A stretch of DNA of 64,000 nt from an uncultured Chloroflexia bacterium. Lineage in GTDB: Bacteria; Chloroflexota; Limnocylindria; Limnocylindrales; CSP1-4. A model generated the notes under the pieces. That model was not told the origin of the DNA, made no database searches, and worked only from the letters and a program-made list of their open reading frames with translations. The position numbers were made by a program, and so were the translations under genes. This document shows, piece after piece, positions 905-10,809 of the stretch. Numbering within the stretch: the first letter of the stretch is position 1; every line of letters starts with the position of its first letter. Where the stretch lies: contig CAVVCZ010000004.1 of assembly GCA_963746845.1 (NCBI GenBank), forward strand, positions 1,350,407 through 1,414,406, read 5' to 3'.

Positions 905-2693
905 TCAGCCTTCGGCAGCCAGAGGGACCATGCGGGCGTAGCCGGCCACGGCGATCTCCCGGACGCGAGCGGCCGTCGGAGCCGCGAGCGCCTCGTCCGC
1001 GATCGCTCGAACCGTCTCGGGATCGAAGCCTGCGACCGCGGCCCGGATGGAGGCCACCGCCCGAGGCGCGACGCTCAACTCGGTGACGCCGAGGCCGGCG
1101 AAGATGCTTGCGATCAACGGGTCGGCTGCGGCCTCACCGCAGACGGCGACCGGTCGTCCGTGGGCGCGTGCGGCTCGGCAGACCATGGCGATGAGTCGCA
1201 ACACGGCCGGCTGATCGGGGGTCGCGAGATCGGCCAACGCCGGGTTCGTCCGGTCCGCCGCGATCGTGTACTGGACCAGGTCATTGGTCCCGATGCTGAA
1301 GAAGTCGACTTCCGCGGCGAGGATGTCCGCGACCAGTGCGGCGGACGGGACCTCGATCATCACGCCGAAGCGGACGTCGCGCGCGATCTCGGCCCCGGCC
1401 AGTCGCGCCGAATTCGGCTGCACGACCGAGCGCGGCGCGGGTCGCCCGGACTTCGTCGAGCGTCGACACCATCGGGATCAGGACGTGCAACTCGGTGCCC
1501 GCTGCCGCCTCCAGCAGCGCCCGCAACTGCGTCTCGAGCAGGTCCGGTCGGCGGAGGCCGAGGCGGATTCCCCGGACGCCGAGGGCCGGGTTCGCCTCCC
1601 GTTCACCGGGCTCGAACCCTGCGGGCTTGTCGCCGCCGATGTCGAGGGTCCGGAACACCACCGGCCTGCCCCCCATCGCGTCGAGGATCCGGCGGTACAC
1701 CGCCCGCTGTTCGTTCAGACCCGGCGCGATCGTCCGGCCCAGGAAGATCAGCTCGGTCCGGACGAGGCCGATCCCGTCGACGCCGGCGCGCGCCGCCTGT
1801 TCGGCCTCCGCGACCGACCCGACGTTTGCCTCGATCCGGATCCCGAGCGGGAGGGACGGGAATGCGATGGTGGCCGCGACCTGGTCCTCGTCAGGTGGGG
1901 CAATCCCCGCCTGAACCTTCGTGGTCGGCGCCGGCGACGGCAGGTCGGCCGGCTCCGGGTCGACGATCAGCCGGCCGACGCCCCCGTCGATCACCGCGGA
2001 CCGGCCATCGAGCCCGATGTGAAGCCCGGGCCCGAGCCCGAGGACGAGCGGGACGCCGAGCGCTCGGGCCACGATCGCCGCGTGGCCGGTCGGGGCGCCC
2101 GCCGCCAGGGCCAGGCCTGCAACGAGCTCCGGCCGGATGCCCGCGACCACCGAGGGATCCAGGTCCTCCGCCGCCACGATCGCACGGGTGCCATCACGAT
2201 GGTGAAGTTCGGGCCGGGTCCGCCCCGCCAGCCGGTCGAGGACCCGCCGGCCGACGTCGCGGAGGTCGGCCGCCCGCTCGCGGAAGTACGCGTCGTCGAC
2301 GCCGGCCAGCGTGTCGGCCTGCTCCGCCGCGACCCGGTCGATCGCCTCCTCCGCGGATGCGCCGCTGCGGATCGCGTCGATCGCCGGATCAACGATCCCC
2401 GGATCGCGCGCGAAGATCGCCTGGGCCTCGAAGATCGCCCCGATGTCCGCGCCGGCCCGACCGGTCGTCTCCCGGGCCAGGGTGTCGAGCTCCGCCGCCG
2501 CGGCCGCCAGGGCGTCGAGCAGCCGCCGCTCCTCGCCGGCGATGTCGTCCGGACCGGGACGCTCGCCGGCGCCCGGGCGCAGTCGTCGCGGCTTCGCGTG
2601 TCCGACCCCGTTGGAGGATCCGCCCAACCAGAGCAGGCGACCGGCGCCGCTTCCGGGCGATCCGGACTGCCCGTCGAGAACGATGCGCGGCAT
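905..2693 (-). CDS. ptsI: PEP-protein phosphotransferase (PTS enzyme I), one frameshift near 1410-1415
   Basis: TGHAAIVARALG phospho-His, GIGLVRTE, RTLDIGGDK and EANPALGVRGIR in ORF 1281-2915 (start ATG 2693). Continues as GVMIEVP, FFSIGTNDLVQY, VAVCGE in ORF 905-1423. Confidence 0.9.
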
Positions 2694-2704
2694 CGGACGC
2701 CCCG

Positions 2705-3373
2705 TCAGACCGCGACGTCGGCGACGACGCTGGCAAGGACGTCGAGCAGGAGCGCAGCGGACGTTGCCCCGGGATCCTGGTGGCCGATGCTGCGCTCGCC
2801 GAGATACGAGGCTCGGCCCTTCGTCGCAAGCATCGGGATGGTGGCCGCCGCACCGGCGGCAGCGGCGTCGCGGGCGGCACCGACGACGGCCGCCGCGTCG
2901 GCATTCCCATCCCATGCCGCGCGCGCGGCCGAGGCCGCCGGGACGAGCGCATCGAGCATCGTCTTCTCGCCCGTCGTCGACTTGCCGAGGGCGCCGATCC
3001 CGGTCGCGGCCGCCTCGAGGGCGGTGACGACGGCGAGACCGCCGGATGGCGGCGGATCGGCCGGCAACGCGGCAAGCGCGGCCGATGCCCGGAGGAAGCC
3101 GGTCCCGTAGAGCGGACCCGACGCCCCACCAACGGTGCTGATCAGGGTGCGGCCGGACAGCCGGAGCAGGTCGACCGTCGCGGTGAGGTCCGGGACGGTC
3201 GGCTCGGCCGGGGGCCGGGCGTCCAGCGCGGCCACGATCGCGCTGAAGCCGCGGTCGAGATTGATCCCGTGGTCGCCGTCGCCGATCGCCTGATCGAGAG
3301 CGGTGAGGGCCGGTGCCTGTTCATGGATTCGGTCGGCCGTGGCGCGGAGCCAGGCCTCGAGCGCGTGCAGCAT
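2705..3373 (-). CDS. dhaL: Dihydroxyacetone kinase ADP-binding subunit DhaL
   Basis: LDQAIGDGDHG, VGGASGPLYG, GEKTMLDAL, KGRASYLGERSIGHQDPGATS. Confidence 0.95.
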   Translation of the reverse strand: MLHALEAWLRATADRIHEQAPALTALDQAIGDGDHGINLDRGFSAIVAALDARPPAEPTVPDLTATVDLLRLSGRTLISTVGGASGPLYGTGFLRASAALAALPADPPPSGGLAVVTALEAAATGIGALGKSTTGEKTMLDALVPAASAARAAWDGNADAAAVVGAARDAAAAGAAATIPMLATKGRASYLGERSIGHQDPGATSAALLLDVLASVVADVAV

Positions 3374-3466: not shown

Positions 3467-4489
3467 TCAGGCGCCCCAGCGGAGCGCCGCGGTGTGGACG
3501 GGAGCGTCCCACAGCCGGATGAGCTGGTCATCGAGCTTCAGGAGCGTGACCGAGAAGCCGGCCATCTCCAGGCTCGTGATGTAGTTCCCGACCAGGCTCC
3601 GCCCGATCGAGATCCCCTGGCCACCCAGGATCCGGTTGACGCTGTCGAACGCGACGTACAGCTCGATGAGCGGCGTGCCGCCCATGCCGTTGACGAACGC
3701 GAGGACCGAGTCCCCTCGGCTCAGACCGAGGTCCGAGACGATCGGCGACACGAGCCACTCGGCCATGTCGTCGACGGGCGCGAGCTTCTCGCGGCGCCGT
3801 CCGGGCTCGCCATGGATGCCGATCCCGACCTCGACCTCGTCGGGTCCGAGCTCGAAGGTCGGCGTCCCGGCGGCGGGGACGATGCAGCTCGACAGCGCGA
3901 GCCCCATCGATCGGCCCTGGCCATTGACCTTGATCGCGGTTGCGGCGACGTCCGCGAGCGACGCTCCGGACTCCGCCGCGGCACCGGCGATCTTCTCGAC
4001 GAGCACGGTCACGCCGACGCCCCGCCGGCCGGCCGTGTAGAGCGAGTCCTGGACCGCGACGTCGTCATTGGTCACGACCGAGGCCACCTCGATCTCGCCC
4101 GCGACGAGCTCCGCCGCCATCTGGAAGTTGAGCACGTCGCCGGTGTAGTTCTTGACGATGTGCAGGACCCCGGCACCTCCGTCGACGGCGCGGGTGGCCG
4201 CCTCCATCTGGTCGGGGACGGGCGAGGTGAAGATGTTGCCGGCCGCGGCGGCATCGAGCATGCCGAACCCGACGAACCCGCCGTGGAGCGGCTCGTGACC
4301 GGAACCGCCGCCGGAGATCAATCCGACCTTGCCGGGCGTCGGACCGCCGGCCCGCAGGACGACGTTGTTCGCGGCGTCGACCTTCACGACGTCGGGGTGA
4401 GCGGCCGCGAGCCCGGCGAGGCTCTCCGGCACGATGTCCTCGACCCGATTGAAGAGCTTCTTCACCCGGGTCGGAGCGCTGGTCGCCAT
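3467..4489 (-). CDS. dhaK: Dihydroxyacetone kinase substrate-binding subunit DhaK
   Basis: [47 protein letters not shown] upstream. Confidence 0.95.
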
Positions 4490-4526: not shown

Positions 4527-5294
4527 TCAGGCGTCGGCCTGGGCGGTTTCGCGAACCGCGCCGCCGGGCACGGTCACCGTTCTGACGTGTCCGACGAACT
4601 CGTACAGGAACGCCCCGATGAGGCCGCCGGCGATCGGGCCGGCGATGTAGACCCAGAGCTGGTCGAGGTGGCTCTTGGCACCGATCAGGGTCCCGAGCAC
4701 GTCGGGGCCGATCTGGCGAGCCGGGTTGAGGGCGGCACCGGTGATCGGGCCGACCAGGATGATGATCCCGTACACGATGAAGCCGATCACGATGCCGGCG
4801 AAGCCGGCCGGGGCACGACCGTCCACCGCGGCTCCGAACACGGTGAAGACGAGGATCGCGGTGCCGATGACCTCGGCCAGGAGGCCGACCACGTTGCCGG
4901 CGTTCGCGTTGACGCCGACGGCGCCCAGGCCGAGCGCCTGCGGGTTGTTGCCGGTCAGGATCACGAGCGTCATGCCGGCGCCGACGAACGCGCCGACCAG
5001 CTGGGCGGCGATGTAGCTGACGGCCGTCTGGCTGTCGACCTTGCGGGTCGCCCACAGGGCGATCGTGACCGCCGGGTTGATGTGTGCGCCGCTGATGTGA
5101 CCGACCGAGTAGACGGCGGCGAAGATCGCGAACGCGAACGCGAACGAGATGGTCGAGAGCTCGGCGCTGCCGAACGGGTTCTGTCCGGTCAGGAACACGG
5201 TCAACGGGACCGAGCCCGCACCGATGAACACGAGGATGGCGGTGCCGATCGCCTCGGCGGTCAGCTTCTGGGCCAGCGTGGGTGACGACGACAT
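4527..5294 (-). CDS. MIP family channel (aquaporin/glycerol facilitator-like)
   Basis: [10 protein letters not shown] and LNPAR motifs, six hydrophobic segments, AAGGAGG RBS. Confidence 0.9.
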
Positions 5295-5312
5295 CGATCG
5301 ACCTCCTTCGGG

Positions 5313-5630
5313 TCAGGGGTGGACGGCTGCGCCGTCCGGGGACAGGGCGACGGTCGGACCGTCGGATGCCGGGGCCACGGCCGGCCCGAGCTCCTCCACC
5401 AACGCCGCGAGGGCGTCATCGGCGTCGGAGCCATCGGCGGTCAGGGTGATCTCGGTCTGTGGACGGATCGTCAGGCCGAGGAGGGCAATCAAGCTCTTGA
5501 CGTCGGCGGTTCGCTCGCCGCTCCGGAGCACGATCCGGCTCTGGAACCGGCTGGCGACCTTGACAACCTTGGCGGCCGGGCGCGCATGGAGCCCGGCGGG
5601 ATCGATCACGGTCAGGCGCAGGTCGACCAT
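5313..5630 (-). CDS. ptsH: Phosphocarrier protein HPr
   Basis: GLHARPA (His15) and DVKSLIALL (Ser46) motifs. Confidence 0.92.
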   Translation of the reverse strand: MVDLRLTVIDPAGLHARPAAKVVKVASRFQSRIVLRSGERTADVKSLIALLGLTIRPQTEITLTADGSDADDALAALVEELGPAVAPASDGPTVALSPDGAAVHP

Positions 5631-5633
5631 CGC

Positions 5634-6041
5634 TCAGGCCTCCAGCGCCTTCGGCAGGGACTGCCATTCGCGGGCCGCCTCGGCGACCGCGTCGAGGTCC
5701 GCGCCGGTGCTCGCCTGAACGCCGGCGAGGAAGGCGCCCTCGACGAGCGGACCGTCGCTGACGCGGACCCGGGACCGGACCTCGGGCTCGAGCAGTTCGA
5801 GCGCGATCTCCAGGCTCAGGAGCGCGCTCCCGAAGTCGAGCAGGACGAGGGCCCCATCCGCGCCGTCGGCCAGGACGGACCGGATCGCCGCTTCGATCCG
5901 CGGCGCCGTGGTTCCGATCCGGCCGTCGTCGGTACCGCCGGCCAGGGCGATCGGGACCTCCGGTCCGCCGAACTGGGCGACGATCGCCCGCAGCCCTTCG
6001 ACCAGCTGCTCGCTGTGGGATACGAGAACCAGTCCCACCAA
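5634..6041 (-). CDS. dhaM: PTS-dependent DHA kinase phosphotransferase subunit DhaM (EIIA-Man-like)
   Basis: (M)VGLVLVSHS, AGGTDDGRIGT, LLDFGSA, DGPLVEGA. TTG start at 6041 with AAGGAGG just upstream. Confidence 0.9.
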   Translation of the reverse strand: MVGLVLVSHSEQLVEGLRAIVAQFGGPEVPIALAGGTDDGRIGTTAPRIEAAIRSVLADGADGALVLLDFGSALLSLEIALELLEPEVRSRVRVSDGPLVEGAFLAGVQASTGADLDAVAEAAREWQSLPKALEA

Positions 6042-6277
6042 GAACGCCTCCTTCCGTGATCCGGGATTCGTGGTCGCCGGCATCGTCTGCCCCGACTCAT
6101 CAAGAAGAAAGCAAGAACCGGTCTGGTTCCGCGATGGATGCGGTCCGAGGTGCGTTTCGTGGTCGCTCGGGTGTTGCCCGGTTCGCGGACCCATCCCTAC
6201 ACTCGGCCGACCGGCCATCGGCCGCCGAATCGAGGATCGTCGTGCCCGTCTCCCCAGTGCAGTCGTCTGTCGCGCCG

Positions 6278-6907
6278 ATGGCGCTCGACGCCGTTGCGCT
6301 GCGCTCCGCCCTCACTCGGGTGCGTCGGACCATCGATCGGCATGCCGCGGCTCTGACCCGGCTCGACGCGGTCCTCGGCGACGGCGACCACGGCGACAAC
6401 CTGTCGATCGGGTTCCGGGCGGTGGAGGAGGTCCTGGCCGGGCTGCCGCCCGACGCACGGCCAGGGGACGTGCTGCGGGCCGTGGGCCATTGCCTGATCT
6501 CCGCCGTCGGCGGCGCTTCCGGCCCGCTCTATGGCACGGCGTTCATCGAAGCGGGGTTCCGCGCCGGGGACGTCACGGTGATCGATGGTCCCCTCGCCGC
6601 GGCAATCCTCGGTGCCGCCGCCGATGGCGTCGCTCGACGCGGCCGATGCGCGGTCGGCGACAAGACGATCCTCGACACGCTCCGACCGGCCGCGACCGCG
6701 CTCGGCGTCTCGGTCTCGGCCGGCAGCGACGCCGCGGGAGCTGCCCGCGCAACGCTGGCTGCGGCACGCGAGGGCATGCGCTCGACCCGGCCGCTCGTTG
6801 CTCGGCGCGGGATCGCGCTTCGACTCGGCGATCGGTCGATTGGTCATCTCGATCCGGGGGCGGTGTCGTGCTTCCTGATCCTGCGCGGTCTCGCCGCCCG
6901 TGACTGA
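6278..6907 (+). CDS. dhaL: Second DhaL paralogue (DAK2 domain)
   Basis: LDAVLGDGDHG, VGGASGPLYG, GDKTILD, LGDRSIGHLDPGA. Start probably ATG 6278 within ORF 6056-6907. Confidence 0.85.
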   Translation: MALDAVALRSALTRVRRTIDRHAAALTRLDAVLGDGDHGDNLSIGFRAVEEVLAGLPPDARPGDVLRAVGHCLISAVGGASGPLYGTAFIEAGFRAGDVTVIDGPLAAAILGAAADGVARRGRCAVGDKTILDTLRPAATALGVSVSAGSDAAGAARATLAAAREGMRSTRPLVARRGIALRLGDRSIGHLDPGAVSCFLILRGLAARD

Positions 6908-8549
6908 CGCCGGCGCCACGCCCGCGCAGACCACCGACCCCGCCCGTCTCGTGGCCCGGATCGCCGAGCTCGAGCAGGAGGCGAGGACCGCCTTCGACGA
7001 AGCCCAGCGCGAGGCGGACACGCTCTTCGCCCAGTACCAGCTCAGTCAGCTCGTTGCCTCGGGCGGATCCGCGGTCGACCTGGCAGGCGCGGTCCTCCTC
7101 GAGCTGACCCGGCTGGCAGCGGGCGACGAGGGCGCGATCTGGCTCGGGGACCGGCCCGGACAGGCGCTCGAGATCACGGCGCGGATCGGCTCGATCGAGC
7201 GCCTCCCGGAGCGCTTCGACGACCTCCCGGCGGCACGGCGCTGGGCGGCTCGCCACACCGACATCACGTTCGTGGTCCTCGCCGATGATCCGTCTCCGAT
7301 GATCGTGGGGATCCGGGCGTCGGATCGGCGACCGCTCGACGAGGACGGGGTTCGGGTGGCACGGCTTGCCCGGCACGAGCTGTCGGTGGCCTTCGCCGGC
7401 GCCCGCCTGCGGGAGGCCCTCGAGCGCGAGGGTCACGACCTCGCCGCGATCGTCGACGGGGCGACCGACGTGATCGTCCAGGTCGACGAGGACTGTCGGA
7501 TCACGCGCCTGAACCCAGCCGGTCAGCGAGTCCTCGGGGTGACGAACGACCAGGCCCTGGGACGACGGTGCGGTGACGCCCTGGGTTGCGAGGCCGCGGG
7601 CGGTCATCGAGCCGTCGACTGCCCGCTGGCGGAGACGATCCGGACCGGCCTCCCGATCGGCTATCGGGAGACGGCGATGCGAGCCGTGCAGGGGACGATC
7701 AAGGTCGGCGGGGGCTACTCGCCCGCGCTCTCGCGGGGCGGCGTCGTCCGTGCGACGGCGATCCTCCGCGACCTGAGCGCCGCGGAGGCGCTCGAGCAGC
7801 TCCGGGAGGGCTTCGTGGCCACGGTCAGCCACGAGCTCCGGACACCGATCGCGCTCATCCGGGGCTACGCCGAAACGCTTCTGCAGTTCGACCTCGAACC
7901 GGAGCAGCAACGGGAGTACCTCGAGCGGATCGAGGGCCTCACGACGCGCCTCGGAGAGCTGGTCAGCCAGATCCTCGACGCGACCCACCTCGACGCGGAC
8001 CCGCTCATCCTCGAACGGACCCCGGTGGCGCTCGCGGCGCTCGTCGCCCGGCTTCGTGGCGACCTGGCGCTGACCGGCGACGATCGGCGGCTCGTCACGG
8101 ACCTGCCATCCGATCTCCCGCCGATCGAGGTCGATCCGAGCCGCGTCGGGCGGATCCTGGAGAATCTCGTCGGAAACGCGCTGAAGTACGCCCCGGCCGA
8201 CTCGCCCGTCATCATCGGAGCGGAGACCCACGGCGGCTGGCTCGCGGTCCACATCGACGACGAGGGGATCGGCATCCCGGAGGCGGATCGGCCGCTCGTC
8301 GCCGAGCCCTTCCATCGGGCCTGGAACGTGCGCGAGTCCCGCATTCCGGGCACGGGCCTGGGGTTGTACATCTGCCGTCGGCTCGTCGAAGCGCACGGGG
8401 GGACGCTGACGATCGGCGATCGGCCCGACGGCCTGTCGGGGACGCGCGTCCAGTTCACCGTTCCCCTCGCGGTCGACGGGCGGGACCGGCAGCGCGCTCG
8501 CACGGCGTCGGACCAGCGTCCGGGCGCCACGGAACGGGTCGGTGGCTGA
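6900..8549 (+). CDS. Soluble sensor histidine kinase (coiled-coil, GAF-like, PAS, HisKA, HATPase)
   Basis: VSHELRTP H-box, NLVGNALKY N-box, DEGIGI, GTGLGL. PAS-like IVDGATDVIVQVDEDCRITRLNPAG. No TM segment seen. Confidence 0.92.
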   Translation: MTDAGATPAQTTDPARLVARIAELEQEARTAFDEAQREADTLFAQYQLSQLVASGGSAVDLAGAVLLELTRLAAGDEGAIWLGDRPGQALEITARIGSIERLPERFDDLPAARRWAARHTDITFVVLADDPSPMIVGIRASDRRPLDEDGVRVARLARHELSVAFAGARLREALEREGHDLAAIVDGATDVIVQVDEDCRITRLNPAGQRVLGVTNDQALGRRCGDALGCEAAGGHRAVDCPLAETIRTGLPIGYRETAMRAVQGTIKVGGGYSPALSRGGVVRATAILRDLSAAEALEQLREGFVATVSHELRTPIALIRGYAETLLQFDLEPEQQREYLERIEGLTTRLGELVSQILDATHLDADPLILERTPVALAALVARLRGDLALTGDDRRLVTDLPSDLPPIEVDPSRVGRILENLVGNALKYAPADSPVIIGAETHGGWLAVHIDDEGIGIPEADRPLVAEPFHRAWNVRESRIPGTGLGLYICRRLVEAHGGTLTIGDRPDGLSGTRVQFTVPLAVDGRDRQRARTASDQRPGATERVGG

Positions 8550-9243
8550 GCGCATCCTGATCGTCGAGGACGAGCCGGAGTTCGCCGCGCTCCTGGAGCT
8601 GTGGATCGGCCGGGCCGGCTACGAGCCGCTCGTCGCGCCGACCGGTAATGACGCCCTCCGCCGCTTCTACGAGTCCCATCCCGAGCTCGTCATCCTCGAC
8701 GTCGCGCTCCCCGGGCTCGATGGCTGGCAGGTCATCGAGCGGATCCGCGAGTTCAGCCGCGTCCCGATCATCCTCGTCACCGCGCGAAGCTCGGAGGCCG
8801 ACAAGATCCGCGGCCTCAAGCTCGGCGCCGACGACTACATCACGAAACCGCTCAGCCTGCCGGAGCTCGTCGCTCGCGTCGAGGCCGCCCTTCGTCGCGC
8901 GTCCACGCCCACGCCCGATCGGCCGCGACGACTCCAGCATCGCGACCTGATCATCGACCTCGACGAGCACCGGGCACGGCTGAGCGGCGAGGACCTGCGT
9001 CTGACGCCGACCGAGTTCCGGCTGCTGGCGTATCTGGTCGAGCACGCGGGCCAGCTCGTGACCCACCGTCAGGTCCTGTCTGCCGTCTGGGGCTCCGGGT
9101 ACGGCGCCGACGTGCATCTCCTGCGGATGACGATCCGGAACCTCCGCCTGAAGCTCGATGCGATCGCGCCAGGCGGCTCGTACATCGCCACGGAGTACGG
9201 GCTCGGCTACCGACTGACGGGGCCCGTAGACTCGTCGCCGTGA
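8542..9243 (+). CDS. OmpR/PhoB family response regulator
   Basis: ILIVEDE, ILDVALPGLDG, GADDYITKP, LTPTEFRLL, TEYGLGYRL. Confidence 0.95.
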   Translation: MAERILIVEDEPEFAALLELWIGRAGYEPLVAPTGNDALRRFYESHPELVILDVALPGLDGWQVIERIREFSRVPIILVTARSSEADKIRGLKLGADDYITKPLSLPELVARVEAALRRASTPTPDRPRRLQHRDLIIDLDEHRARLSGEDLRLTPTEFRLLAYLVEHAGQLVTHRQVLSAVWGSGYGADVHLLRMTIRNLRLKLDAIAPGGSYIATEYGLGYRLTGPVDSSP

Positions 9244-9842
9244 CCGACGACAGAGAGGCCGAGCTCGCCGCGCTGCTCGCCCGGCCCGGGCCCGGCTCGC
9301 ACCGGACGACGATCCTCATCGACGGCGTCCCGACCGAGACCCTCGCGGACCTCCCGCCGCTCCGCGATCGGCTGCTGTTCGTCGGGCTCAACCCGTCGCC
9401 GGTCAGCGTCGAGGCCGGCCACTACTTCCAGGGCAAGCTCGGCCGGGCCCTGTGGGGCCGCCTGATCCGGGCGCAGATCCTGCCGCCCGACACCGACATC
9501 GACACCGCCGACGACGCGCTCGTCGCGGCCGGCCACGGCATCACGGACCTCCACAAGCTGCCGAGTCCCCGCGACGAGGCCAGCGACGCGCTCCTGCGGG
9601 CGGGGGTCGGCCCGCTCTGGCAGAAGGTCGCGCTCTGGCGACCGGCCGCGATCGTGTTCGTCTGGAAGCGGGCCGCGGAGACGGCGGCCGGCCGGAAGCT
9701 CGATGAGCCGTGGGGCCAGCTCGAGGGCGTCGCCCTCGCCGGCCGGCCGTGCTTCCTGATGCCGGGCGCCTACGCGCCGGTCGAACAGGTCGATGCGGGG
9801 CTCAACCTGATCCGGAACCTCGGGGCGTCCCTGCCCCGCTGA
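9240..9842 (+). CDS. Mismatch-specific uracil-DNA glycosylase (Mug/TDG family)
   Basis: LFVGLNPSPVSVEAGHYFQG motif 1 and GHGITDL. Confidence 0.75.
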   Translation: MTDDREAELAALLARPGPGSHRTTILIDGVPTETLADLPPLRDRLLFVGLNPSPVSVEAGHYFQGKLGRALWGRLIRAQILPPDTDIDTADDALVAAGHGITDLHKLPSPRDEASDALLRAGVGPLWQKVALWRPAAIVFVWKRAAETAAGRKLDEPWGQLEGVALAGRPCFLMPGAYAPVEQVDAGLNLIRNLGASLPR

Positions 9843-10809
9843 TTCGGAGCCGGCCGGTTCCGGGCGCATCGATCGTCACGGTCGCGCCGGCGTCCCCGGG
9901 GAGGCGGTCGCCGTCGACGAGCTCGACCGTCTGGTACGGGAGGTGCGCTCCGGCTCCGGGTGCCGCGAGGATCGGGACCTCGCACGGGATCGCCAGCATC
10001 TCGGCGCCGGCGGCATGATCCGGATCGGGGCTGGTGAGGAGGATCGCGCGAAGGACGCCGCCGCGGCGATCGATCGTCTCCTCGATCGTGCGGATCGCCG
10101 CCTCTGACGGGTCGCCCGGGTCGACGACGATGACCTCCCGGCGGCCGAGCACGGTCGTCTCGCATCCTCGACCGGGCAGCCCACCGGCGCCCCCGAAGGC
10201 GAGGCGGACGATCCACTCCTCCTCCGCGGTGACCACCGGCGGGGCGACAGGCTCGAAGCGGATCCGCTCGGCCACGTCGCCGGCAGATCGTGCGCGGATC
10301 TCGAGCAGACGCTGGAGGACGGAGGTCGTCGGGACCCACATCTCGATCTCGCCCGCGCTCAGTCGCCGGAAGGCGGCCGACGGGGTGAGCCACGCGTGCC
10401 CGGCGACCTCTCCCGGTGAGAAGTCGGTCTCGGCGCCATCGGGCAGATCCGCGACGAAGAACCACGTCGAGAACCGGCGAGGCATGAACACCGGCGTCGT
10501 GAAGTGCGCGATCGGAACGAGGGCGGCGGCATCACCGAGGTGGACGCCGATCTCCTCCTGGACCTCCCGGATCGCGGCTCGTCGGAGGGCGGCAGACTCG
10601 ACGGCCGAGACGTTACCGCCGAGGTCGTCGGAACCCGGCTCCCCGACCGCGTCGTCCGGATCGACCTTCCCACCGGGGAAGACATGGAGGCCGGGCCCGA
10701 ACGCCATCGACGCCGGGCGCTCGATCAGGAGGACCTCGGGCTCGGTACCCGGACCGGGTCGGACGAGGACGACGGTCGCCGCGGCTCTCGGTTCGGCCGG
10801 CGTGCTCAG
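9802..10809 (-). CDS. NUDIX hydrolase fused to truncated metallo-beta-lactamase-like domain
   Basis: [11 protein letters not shown]...VFPGGKVD...[10 protein letters not shown] Nudix box, then VVDPGD and [13 protein letters not shown]. The frame extends upstream of ATG 10707 to a CTG at 10809. Confidence 0.75.

Follow-up and report, generated by a model that had tools for sequence, protein, structure and literature searches.

A 64,000-nucleotide stretch of DNA from an uncultured bacterium of the Chloroflexota class Candidatus Limnocylindria, referred to herein as the window, contains a dihydroxyacetone (DHA) kinase operon and, divergent from it, a second dhaL gene that is followed by genes for a soluble histidine kinase and an OmpR/PhoB-family response regulator. 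We refer to the product of this second gene as DhaL2 and to the canonical subunit encoded in the operon as DhaL1. Our analysis indicates that DhaL2 is probably a signalling partner that docks on the kinase, and we propose that the regulator would control the divergent dha operon by way of phased repeats in the intergenic region. The original prediction, which was made from the letters of this DNA, had read DhaL2 as a signalling subunit whose nucleotide state, set by DhaM and DhaK, controls the kinase and hence the operon, and that reading is partly supported by the results described below.

Conservation of the DhaL2-kinase-regulator linkage was examined in 401 sampled genomes of the class. Matches to the 185-residue N-terminus of the kinase were found in 65 of these genomes, a count that takes in the source genome (G000) and one unpublished genome (G249); 55 of the matches were at E <= 1e-13 and 10 were at E > 1e-5. 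The short loci returned contained a DhaL2-like gene, the kinase and the regulator in 30 of 30 cases and a divergent dhaM in 29, the miss being cut by a contig end. We refetched 12–13 kb around 50 of the 54 strong-hit relatives and around the 10 weak hits, leaving out the unpublished genome, two genomes with frame breaks (G389 and G395) and one in which the locus met a contig end (G174). In all 50 strong loci DhaL2, the kinase and the regulator were encoded on one strand beside dhaK and a MIP-family channel gene, and a divergent dhaM was present in 49 (the exception is L084). DhaL2 was found in none of the 10 weak-hit loci. A species-wide scan of one genome per species, in which the two best-conserved peptides of the N-terminal part of the kinase served as patterns, confirmed 154 loci. 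Among the best 80 of the 154, DhaL2 lay directly upstream of the kinase in 80, and the regulator and dhaM were both present in 76, the other four being cut by contig ends; this set overlaps the 50-locus set and is not independent of it. Synteny, for which the original prediction had proposed a neighbourhood survey, was thus conserved in 50 of 50 loci and in 80 of the best 80 of 154.

The kinase N-terminus defines a narrow family. When its profile was run against 1.84 billion representative proteins, 176 matches were obtained at E <= 0.001 and 41 at E <= 1e-30. Dak1 was present in all 55 strong-hit genomes, compared to 136 of the 401 overall, the latter count taking in six unpublished genomes. 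Records from the species-wide scan were all labelled Chloroflexota or Limnocylindria save three contigs of metagenome-assembled genomes. These three contigs (L096, L098 and L101) carry the labels Verrucomicrobiia, Eisenbacteria and Methylomirabilota, and the module in them is 55–72% identical; judging from their sequences, mis-binning is more likely than transfer between phyla.

The genes of the module are closely packed. Direct reading of the window bore out the two 8-nucleotide overlaps that had been proposed, GTGACTGA at 6900–6907 between DhaL2 and the kinase and GTGGCTGA at 8542–8549 between the kinase and the regulator. Across 51 loci the kinase gene began before the DhaL2 gene had ended in 45; in 24 the overlap was exactly 4 or 8 nucleotides, and the largest gap was 137 nucleotides, although these junction lengths rest on heuristic start calls. 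Longer proteins matching DhaL2, together with kinase N-terminal profile matches that started at residue 200–270, were considered as candidate fusions. Nine over-long sequences were read (P0121, P0123, P0127, P0131, P0149, P0271, P0289, P0291 and P0323), of which six read as DhaL2-kinase fusions. Fusion proteins of 627–822 residues were nevertheless rejected, as all nine sequences carry long out-of-frame stretches. The apparent fusions are gene calls across indel errors of error-prone assemblies, and no clean DhaL2-kinase fusion was found among the nine candidates.

DhaL2 is a full Dak2 protein (PF02734, 153.6 bits against a cut-off of 27) that is 44% identical to DhaL1 and is matched by E. coli DhaL (2btd) at E 6.2e-30. 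Comparison of the two sequences of the window confirmed that DhaL2 keeps the GDGDHG motif and that RRGIALRLG stands where DhaL1 has TKGRASYLG. We aligned 48 DhaL2 sequences spanning three families of the class, L046, L066 and L058 being set aside for frame problems. The alignment contained 44 invariant columns; D30, D35, D37, H38, G78, G79, G82, G127, D128 and K129 were invariant, and the Asp triad, H38, GGASGP and GDKT were invariant or nearly so among the orthologues. According to the accessible excerpts of two papers, the aspartates of DhaL bind Mg (PMC9136124, PMC10848957). The replacement was likewise general: ARRG[LI]A[LMV]RLG was found in place of KGRASYLG in 50 of 51 DhaL2 proteins, and the remaining one was missed by the search pattern. 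At the positions of E. coli R178 and Y181, all 81 other DhaL proteins (those from the same loci, plus E. coli) have R and Y, whereas DhaL2 has L/I and R. No open text on the role of R178 or Y181 in E. coli DhaL was found in our literature searches. Six more positions are specific to DhaL2 (R21, R28, L33, C124, I131 and C198). The two cysteines, C124 and C198 (window positions 6647–6649 and 6869–6871), were present in 98% of DhaL2 proteins and in 0 of the 81 others, and C124 comes right after R120–R123, a loop of the predicted interface described below.

In a tree of 132 DhaL proteins, from which fragments shorter than 170 residues and rows with stops were excluded, the 51 DhaL2 rows formed one clade with a support of 100 in the Shimodaira-Hasegawa-like approximate likelihood ratio test (SH-aLRT) and with a stem of 0.99 changes per site. 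The root of this tree is unsure because it was placed on the single, long-branched E. coli row. The phylogeny that had been proposed as a check thus showed DhaL2 to be a separate, fast-evolved clade in which two otherwise invariant DhaL residues are lost. Every locus with DhaL2 also encoded a canonical DhaL (50 full-length and one cut by a contig end), such that DhaL2 was never the sole DhaL of a locus. In the 50 refetched loci, and in the best 80 of the scan, the DhaL2 gene stood directly before the kinase gene and not with dhaK, which is followed by the canonical dhaL.

The kinase had been described as lacking transmembrane segments and as carrying GAF-like and PAS regions. Hydropathy bore out the former, as no segment of transmembrane strength was present in the protein (the maximum mean over 19 residues was 1.53, compared to 2.62 for the MIP channel). 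Residues 1–180 have no Pfam match. An AF2 model of residues 1–302, built on 49 orthologues, had a predicted local distance difference test (pLDDT) score of 92.2, and consisted of a long helix (14–53), a second helix (58–72), a small alpha/beta domain, a linker helix (158–187) and a PAS domain (188–300). Residues 30–178 of the model resembled the GAF domain 3cit_A (Z 12.6, root-mean-square deviation 2.9, 139 residues aligned), so that the GAF-like region was confirmed by its fold, and residues 186–302 matched the PAS domains of FixL, LOV and similar proteins with Z values of 12–13.5. The most conserved part of the sensor is the helical segment 32–72, and not the core of either the GAF or the PAS domain. 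Its conserved columns are F32..A35 Q36..A39 D40..F43 A44.Y46 Q47 L48 S49 Q50..A53, plus E68, of which A35, A39, D40, F43, Y46, L48, S49, Q50 and E68 are invariant, whereas the rest of the GAF domain is rich in indels.

This helix follows the distribution of DhaL2. All 50 DhaL2-linked loci contained the motif [FY][AS][QHA]Y[QE]LSQ, which was absent from all 10 weak-hit loci. Of the latter, three (L085 at 4925–10372, L090 and L092), all from genomes of one genus (g5), belong to a sister two-component system whose regulator is 55% identical to that of the window (52–57% across the three). Alignment of the sister kinase with the window kinase begins only at residue 58 (35% identity, E 2e-72), and the sister has no N-terminal helix motif. 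In two genomes (G026 and G143) the sister pair is divergent from glpF-glpK and there is no DhaL, while in the third (G289) the locus is cut before its neighbours. Within the kinase family the additional N-terminal helix is thus found with DhaL2 and is missing where DhaL2 is missing. From these neighbourhoods the family seems to be tied to glycerol or triose catabolism in general.

A complex model was in keeping with docking on this helix. Kinase residues 1–302 and DhaL2, modelled together with alignments as input, gave a score of 0.69 (0.69, 0.79 and 0.65 in the individual runs), compared to 0.01 for the best of three controls. This mark is reached by 116 of 157 solved complexes and by 2 of 215 mismatched pairs. 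The runs shared at least 94% of contacts, and the pLDDT of the partner was at least 92. In the model, kinase residues 32–72 face DhaL2 residues 34, 79–94, 117–123 and 176–184. The kinase side is the conserved helix, with 10 of 21 residues at least 90% conserved, and the DhaL2 side consists of loops round the nucleotide opening, including the DhaL2-specific L/I179 and R182. The modelling check that had been suggested, in which DhaL2 would be placed on the kinase N-terminus, thus had a positive outcome, and physical contact between DhaL2 and the kinase is predicted. A pass in this assay shows likeness, not binding.

The PAS domain of the kinase contains a cluster of Cys and His residues. C224, C230 and C241 were present in 49 of 49 kinase sequences. 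The fourth ligand was a His in 19 sequences, those of the type-A lineage (the window plus L035–L052), and a Cys one column on in 31, with one sequence having both. The glpFK-linked sister kinase has the cluster too. The exchange of Cys and His at one position suggests a metal or iron-sulphur site, which might provide a second, possibly redox, input.

We confirmed the limits that had been given for the intergenic region. The dhaM start codon is TTG 6041, with AAGGAGG 5 nucleotides upstream, and DhaL2 begins at 6278; the intergenic region is therefore 6042–6277 (236 nucleotides). Phased direct repeats about one helical turn apart are the layout that is bound by regulators of the OmpR/PhoB family. 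Repeats at 11-nucleotide steps in this region are candidate sites for the regulator. In the window the array consists of TCAAGA and GCAAGA, followed by the degenerate units TCTGGT and GATGGA. A hexamer pair, [TG]CAAGA-N5-[GTA][CT]AA[GC], was present in 19 of 19 type-A intergenic regions, and a third unit with no more than one mismatch to TCAAGA at an 11-nucleotide step was present in 13 of the 19, the window not being among them. Units of the form T[CG]AGGA with the same phasing were found in 12 of 12 loci of family f4. Toward DhaL2, a TTG[CT][CG]-N16-19-TAnnnT pair that resembles −35 and −10 elements was found in 18 of 19 type-A regions. A terminator-like hairpin at 6130–6114 on the minus strand was rejected, as it overlaps the repeats and is probably due to chance. 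The features of the locus are collected in Table 1.

Table 1. Positions in the window of the genes and sequence elements considered in this work
Feature	Position	Strand	Basis or remark
DhaL2 (DhaL paralogue)	6278–6907	+	Dak2, 6.2e-45; TIGR02365, 173.6 bits against a cut-off of 138.3
Soluble histidine kinase, 549 amino acids	6900–8549	+	PAS_4, 186–294; HisKA, 302–366 (3.1e-17); HATPase_c, 412–524 (2.8e-26)
OmpR/PhoB-family response regulator	8542–9243	+	Response_reg, 1.8e-27; Trans_reg_C, 2.7e-20
Conserved kinase helix motif F..AQREAD..FAQYQLSQL, predicted DhaL2 docking site	6993–7115	+	Kinase residues 32–72
Cys/His cluster in PAS domain (C224, C230, H236, C241)	7569–7622	+	Kinase alignment
Candidate regulator operator	6100–6143		Hexamers at 11-nucleotide steps, 59–102 nucleotides upstream of the dhaM start
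−35/−10-like pair TTGCCC-N18-TACACT upstream of dhaL2	6174–6203	+	Conserved pattern
dhaM, EIIA-man domain only	5634–6041	-	First gene of the divergent operon; TIGR02364, 120.6 bits against a cut-off of 98.25
HPr	5313–5630	-	PTS-HPr, 2.7e-25
MIP-family channel (glycerol/DHA facilitator type)	4527–5294	-	PF00230, 6.4e-52
dhaK	3467–4489	-	Dak1, 1.4e-124; TIGR02363, 452.3 bits against a cut-off of 406.25
dhaL1, canonical DhaL with TKGRASYLG	2705–3373	-	Dak2, 1.3e-45; TIGR02365, 207.4 bits against a cut-off of 138.3
ptsI (enzyme I)	905–2693	-	Final gene of the divergent operon; divided between two frames near 1400–1420
ptsI, frame 1	1281–2693	-	PEP-utilisers_N, PEP-utilizers and PEP-utilizers_C profile positions 20–162 (open reading frame 1281–2915; Pfam)
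ptsI, frame 2	905–1423	-	PEP-utilizers_C profile positions 168–290 (Pfam)

A central feature of the proposed model is that DhaL2 would be made in step with the soluble GAF-PAS histidine kinase. The nucleotide-binding face of DhaL2 would dock on the conserved N-terminal helix and thereby set the balance between kinase and phosphatase activities. The phosphorylated OmpR-type regulator would then bind the 11-nucleotide phased repeats between dhaM and dhaL2 and control the divergent dhaM-HPr-MIP-dhaK-dhaL-ptsI operon, a target suggested by analogy with E. coli DhaL and DhaR, as is the sign of the effect of DhaL2 on the kinase. A further and more tentative part of the model, which we regard as possible and not as probable, concerns the signal. 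By the E. coli analogy, the nucleotide on DhaL2 would be charged by DhaM~P and discharged by DhaK-bound DHA, only one of the two states would dock, and a metal or redox site in the PAS domain would be a second input. The bound nucleotide, ADP after discharge on DhaK-DHA or ATP after charging by DhaM~P, would thus decide whether DhaL2 binds the kinase, and the charging route would run from phosphoenolpyruvate (PEP) by way of enzyme I, HPr and DhaM~P to the conversion of ADP to ATP on DhaL2. The near-constant presence of dhaM beside the module fits a signal of this kind. With the Arg and Tyr lost, DhaL2 may or may not still carry phosphoryl groups from DhaM to DhaK-bound DHA on its nucleotide.

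Several observations weigh against our interpretation of DhaL2 as a signalling partner, or against parts of it. The genomes in which the linkage was found are related and are not independent observations. At 10 of 10 dhaK loci sampled from genomes of the class that do not have the kinase there was no module, and the module is therefore not required for dha operons in the class; eight of these loci had the order glpF-dhaK-dhaL-glpK-dhaM, one of them with another MIP gene for glpF, and two had dhaK-dhaL-dhaM-HPr. The sister kinase-regulator pair occurs without DhaL2, and there is a conserved Cys/His site in the kinase itself. The kinase may thus have inputs other than DhaL2, and its main signal may come in by another route. 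Part of the complex score may be memory because complexes of E. coli DhaL have been solved, namely 4LRZ for DhaR(N)-DhaL and 3PNL for DhaK-DhaL. Of the eight positions that are strictly specific to DhaL2, only two fall within the modelled interface (Fisher p 0.17). Covariation between the two faces gives no information, as the residues on either side hardly vary; variation occurs at four contact pairs, only one of which is above the 90th percentile of the background. Replacement of the Arg and Tyr could mean that DhaL2 is no longer charged by DhaM or discharged on DhaK, in which case the ADP/ATP part of the model would break. As for the regulator, a KCAAGANNNNNKCAAS regulon search of the source genome gave 3 matches, compared to 5 for the reversed control, and thus revealed no regulon; as the hexamers show no genome-wide enrichment, the evidence for the operator is phylogenetic footprinting only. 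A sigma-70 scan of 5950–6350 gave no site at threshold, the TTGCCC-N18-TACACT pair being below it.

The same observations bear on what DhaL2 might do instead. It could be an ordinary, diverged catalytic isoform that shares an operon with a kinase whose own signal is perceived by the GAF domain or by the Cys/His site of the PAS domain. Such a role would be consistent with retention of the Mg and nucleotide motifs, with the sister pair that lies beside glpFK without any DhaL, and with the occurrence of the Cys/His cluster in 49 of 49 sequences and in the sister kinase. In addition, DhaL2 exceeds the NCBI equivalog cut-off for catalytic DhaL (TIGR02365), another point against a signalling role; pipelines therefore label it an ordinary subunit, and the module is hidden from automated annotation. 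We nonetheless consider a catalytic role improbable. DhaL2 is never the sole DhaL of a locus, its clade has a long stem branch along which two otherwise invariant residues were lost, its gene stands directly before that of the kinase and not beside dhaK in 50 of 50 loci, the kinase helix motif is found only where DhaL2 is present, and the complex model passes its controls.

A partnership with the kinase in which DhaL2 does not act as an ADP/ATP switch is also rather unlikely in our judgement. The nucleotide would in that case be held permanently, and DhaL2 would be either a constitutive structural subunit or a partner that leaves the kinase for DhaK, be it loaded with DHA or not, or for DhaM~P. 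Several features are as expected for such an exchange of partners: residues equivalent to R178 and Y181 of E. coli are invariant in 81 of 81 other DhaL proteins and replaced in DhaL2, the module has its own dhaM in 49 of 50 loci, and the predicted contact with the kinase uses loops round the nucleotide opening. According to the accessible excerpts of PMC9136124, the nucleotide-capping segment of DhaL inserts into DhaK and DhaM, and if this segment is among the interface loops, binding of DhaL2 to these proteins and to the kinase would be mutually exclusive. Against this stands the strict conservation of the Asp triad, GGASGP and GDKT, which fits a working phosphoryl site as well as it fits mere nucleotide binding. 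The remaining alternative, that the arrangement is an artefact of annotation or assembly or that DhaL2 is a decaying pseudogene, is extremely improbable. Although ptsI contains a frameshift in the present assembly and module genes have frame breaks in some related assemblies (e.g., L015 and L025), the frame of DhaL2 is open and 44 of its columns are invariant across 48 sequences from three families, and DhaL2 was found in at least 80 independent assemblies.

Our interpretation of DhaL2 as a signalling partner of the kinase has a close parallel in E. coli, in which control of DhaR by DhaL as co-activator and DhaK as co-repressor is said to have been described by Bachler in 2005 and Shi in 2014. 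In both cases the regulator of the dha operon would be informed about DHA kinase by a DhaL-type protein, the sensor region is soluble with GAF and PAS domains joined by a long helix, and the regulatory gene is divergent from the operon. DhaR(N) was among the two-domain Foldseek matches of the kinase model (4lrx_C, E 1.5e-8, rank 12 behind bacteriophytochromes; 4lrz_H, E 1.1e-7). In sequence comparisons the kinase sensor profile matched 4lrx_C in the PDB marginally (E 0.004), and hhalign aligned residues 130–231 of the sensor with DhaR(N) at a probability of 14.8% and an E of 0.0018. Thus the two sensors have the same architecture, and any kinship between their sequences is marginal. The systems differ in that the kinase output consists of HisKA and HATPase domains and a separate OmpR-type regulator, whereas that of DhaR is an AAA+/HTH enhancer-binding protein; in that the role of partner falls to a dedicated paralogue whose motif has changed and not to catalytic DhaL itself; and in that the predicted docking helix has no aligned counterpart in DhaR, the alignment with which starts only at kinase residue 130. 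The excerpts available of the papers on E. coli state that DhaR is activated by DhaL and repressed by DhaK according to the ATP/ADP load of DhaL (PMC10084136), and that DhaM charges ADP on DhaL while DhaK-bound DHA discharges it (PMC6643234).

Other known systems share single features with the module. Small proteins whose state is set by metabolism or by the phosphotransferase system (PTS), namely PII (GlnB) with NtrB and EIIA-Ntr (PtsN) with KdpD and PhoR, bind a histidine kinase and shift its kinase/phosphatase balance. DhaL2 would likewise be a small accessory protein that sets the output of a histidine kinase. It differs from these proteins in that its fold is that of DhaL, an all-helical barrel holding two Mg ions and a tightly bound nucleotide, in that its translation is coupled to that of the kinase, and in that its docking site in the model is a helix that precedes the GAF domain. 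In Lactococcus lactis, Christen et al. reportedly described in 2006 the TetR-type regulator DhaS with DhaQ, a DhaK paralogue, as co-regulator of the dha operon. There too a duplicated DHA kinase subunit was turned into a dedicated co-regulator, although here the duplicated subunit is DhaL and not DhaK, and the receiver is a histidine kinase and not a TetR repressor. NCBIfam names TIGR02362 'DhaKLM operon coactivator DhaQ', and the sole DhaK of our locus passes TIGR02363 and fails this model (253.7 bits compared to 413.25). The N-terminal domain of FakA is, in the accessible excerpts of PMC9136124 and PMC10848957, a DhaL-fold nucleotide-binding module that is used beyond DHA phosphorylation. 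FakA is still a kinase, which acts on a substrate carried by a partner protein, whereas DhaL2 appears to have been recruited for signalling.

The window has a G+C content of 72%. An alternative DhaL2 start, GTG 6242, is preceded by GAGGA. The kinase H-box is HELRTP at residues 311–316, with H311 as the His residue, and the regulator scores below the cut-off of every named NCBIfam regulator. The divergent operon had been described as a complete dhaM-ptsH-MIP-dhaK-dhaL-ptsI operon. The gene set was indeed present, but the operon is not intact in the present assembly because ptsI is split over two frames. In the two nearest relatives ptsI is a single open reading frame (591 and 559 amino acids), and the split in the window may be either a real frameshift or an assembly error. 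The ptsI start, ATG 2693, was inferred from the translation and from the 9-nucleotide gap in the relative L035. Downstream of the module, an open reading frame of the uracil-DNA glycosylase superfamily (PF03167, 2e-07) is located at 9240–9842 on the plus strand; its start is 4 nucleotides ahead of the regulator stop, and it may therefore be co-transcribed with DhaL2, the kinase and the regulator.

Elsewhere in the source genome two further Dak2 genes were found, at C4:872636-873130 and C5:404502-406054 (L003 and L004). The latter directly follows a Dak1 match within one long open frame, which probably encodes a fused ATP-dependent DHA kinase. Many of the loci that we refer to as type B (L053–L083) contain two copies of dhaM and three paralogous DhaL genes. 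The additional canonical dhaL is located after the dhaM of the module in 18 loci or is convergent after the regulator in 12, and it is this extra DhaL, not the one adjacent to dhaK, that is the ortholog of window dhaL1. The dhaM beside the module in type-B loci is a second copy. From the gene order, a unit of dhaM, dhaL, dhaL2, kinase and regulator looks as if it had been inserted beside a glpF-dhaK-dhaL-glpK-dhaM operon.

To our knowledge only two controls of dha operons that act through kinase subunits have been described, E. coli DhaR with DhaL and DhaK, and Lactococcus DhaS with DhaQ. Co-regulation by a DHA kinase subunit is thus known already, as are accessory proteins of histidine kinases; the combination of a DhaL protein with a histidine kinase, and a dedicated DhaL paralogue with its own predicted docking helix, are not known. 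Full-text literature searches found no paper linking a DhaL/Dak2 protein to a histidine kinase, and the terms 'two-component' and 'histidine kinase' do not occur in the accessible part of PMC4777399. With this module there would be a third such control of a dha operon, and for the first time one that works through a histidine kinase. The DhaL fold would join the few kinds of accessory protein that determine the output of a kinase, and the module would be a clear case in which an enzyme subunit was duplicated and became a signalling protein by one motif change and one new helix in the receiver. Although the organisms have not been cultured, the small size and solubility of the system allow it to be tested in vitro with synthetic genes. 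If the tentative ADP/ATP switch is true, the input of a two-component system would lie in how far a nucleotide on a partner protein is phosphorylated, and the PTS and the availability of substrate would feed directly into a His-Asp relay. The association of a DhaL paralogue with a soluble kinase and a DNA-binding partner in an uncultured class of soil Chloroflexota suggests that an enzyme subunit now serves as the input of a two-component system.

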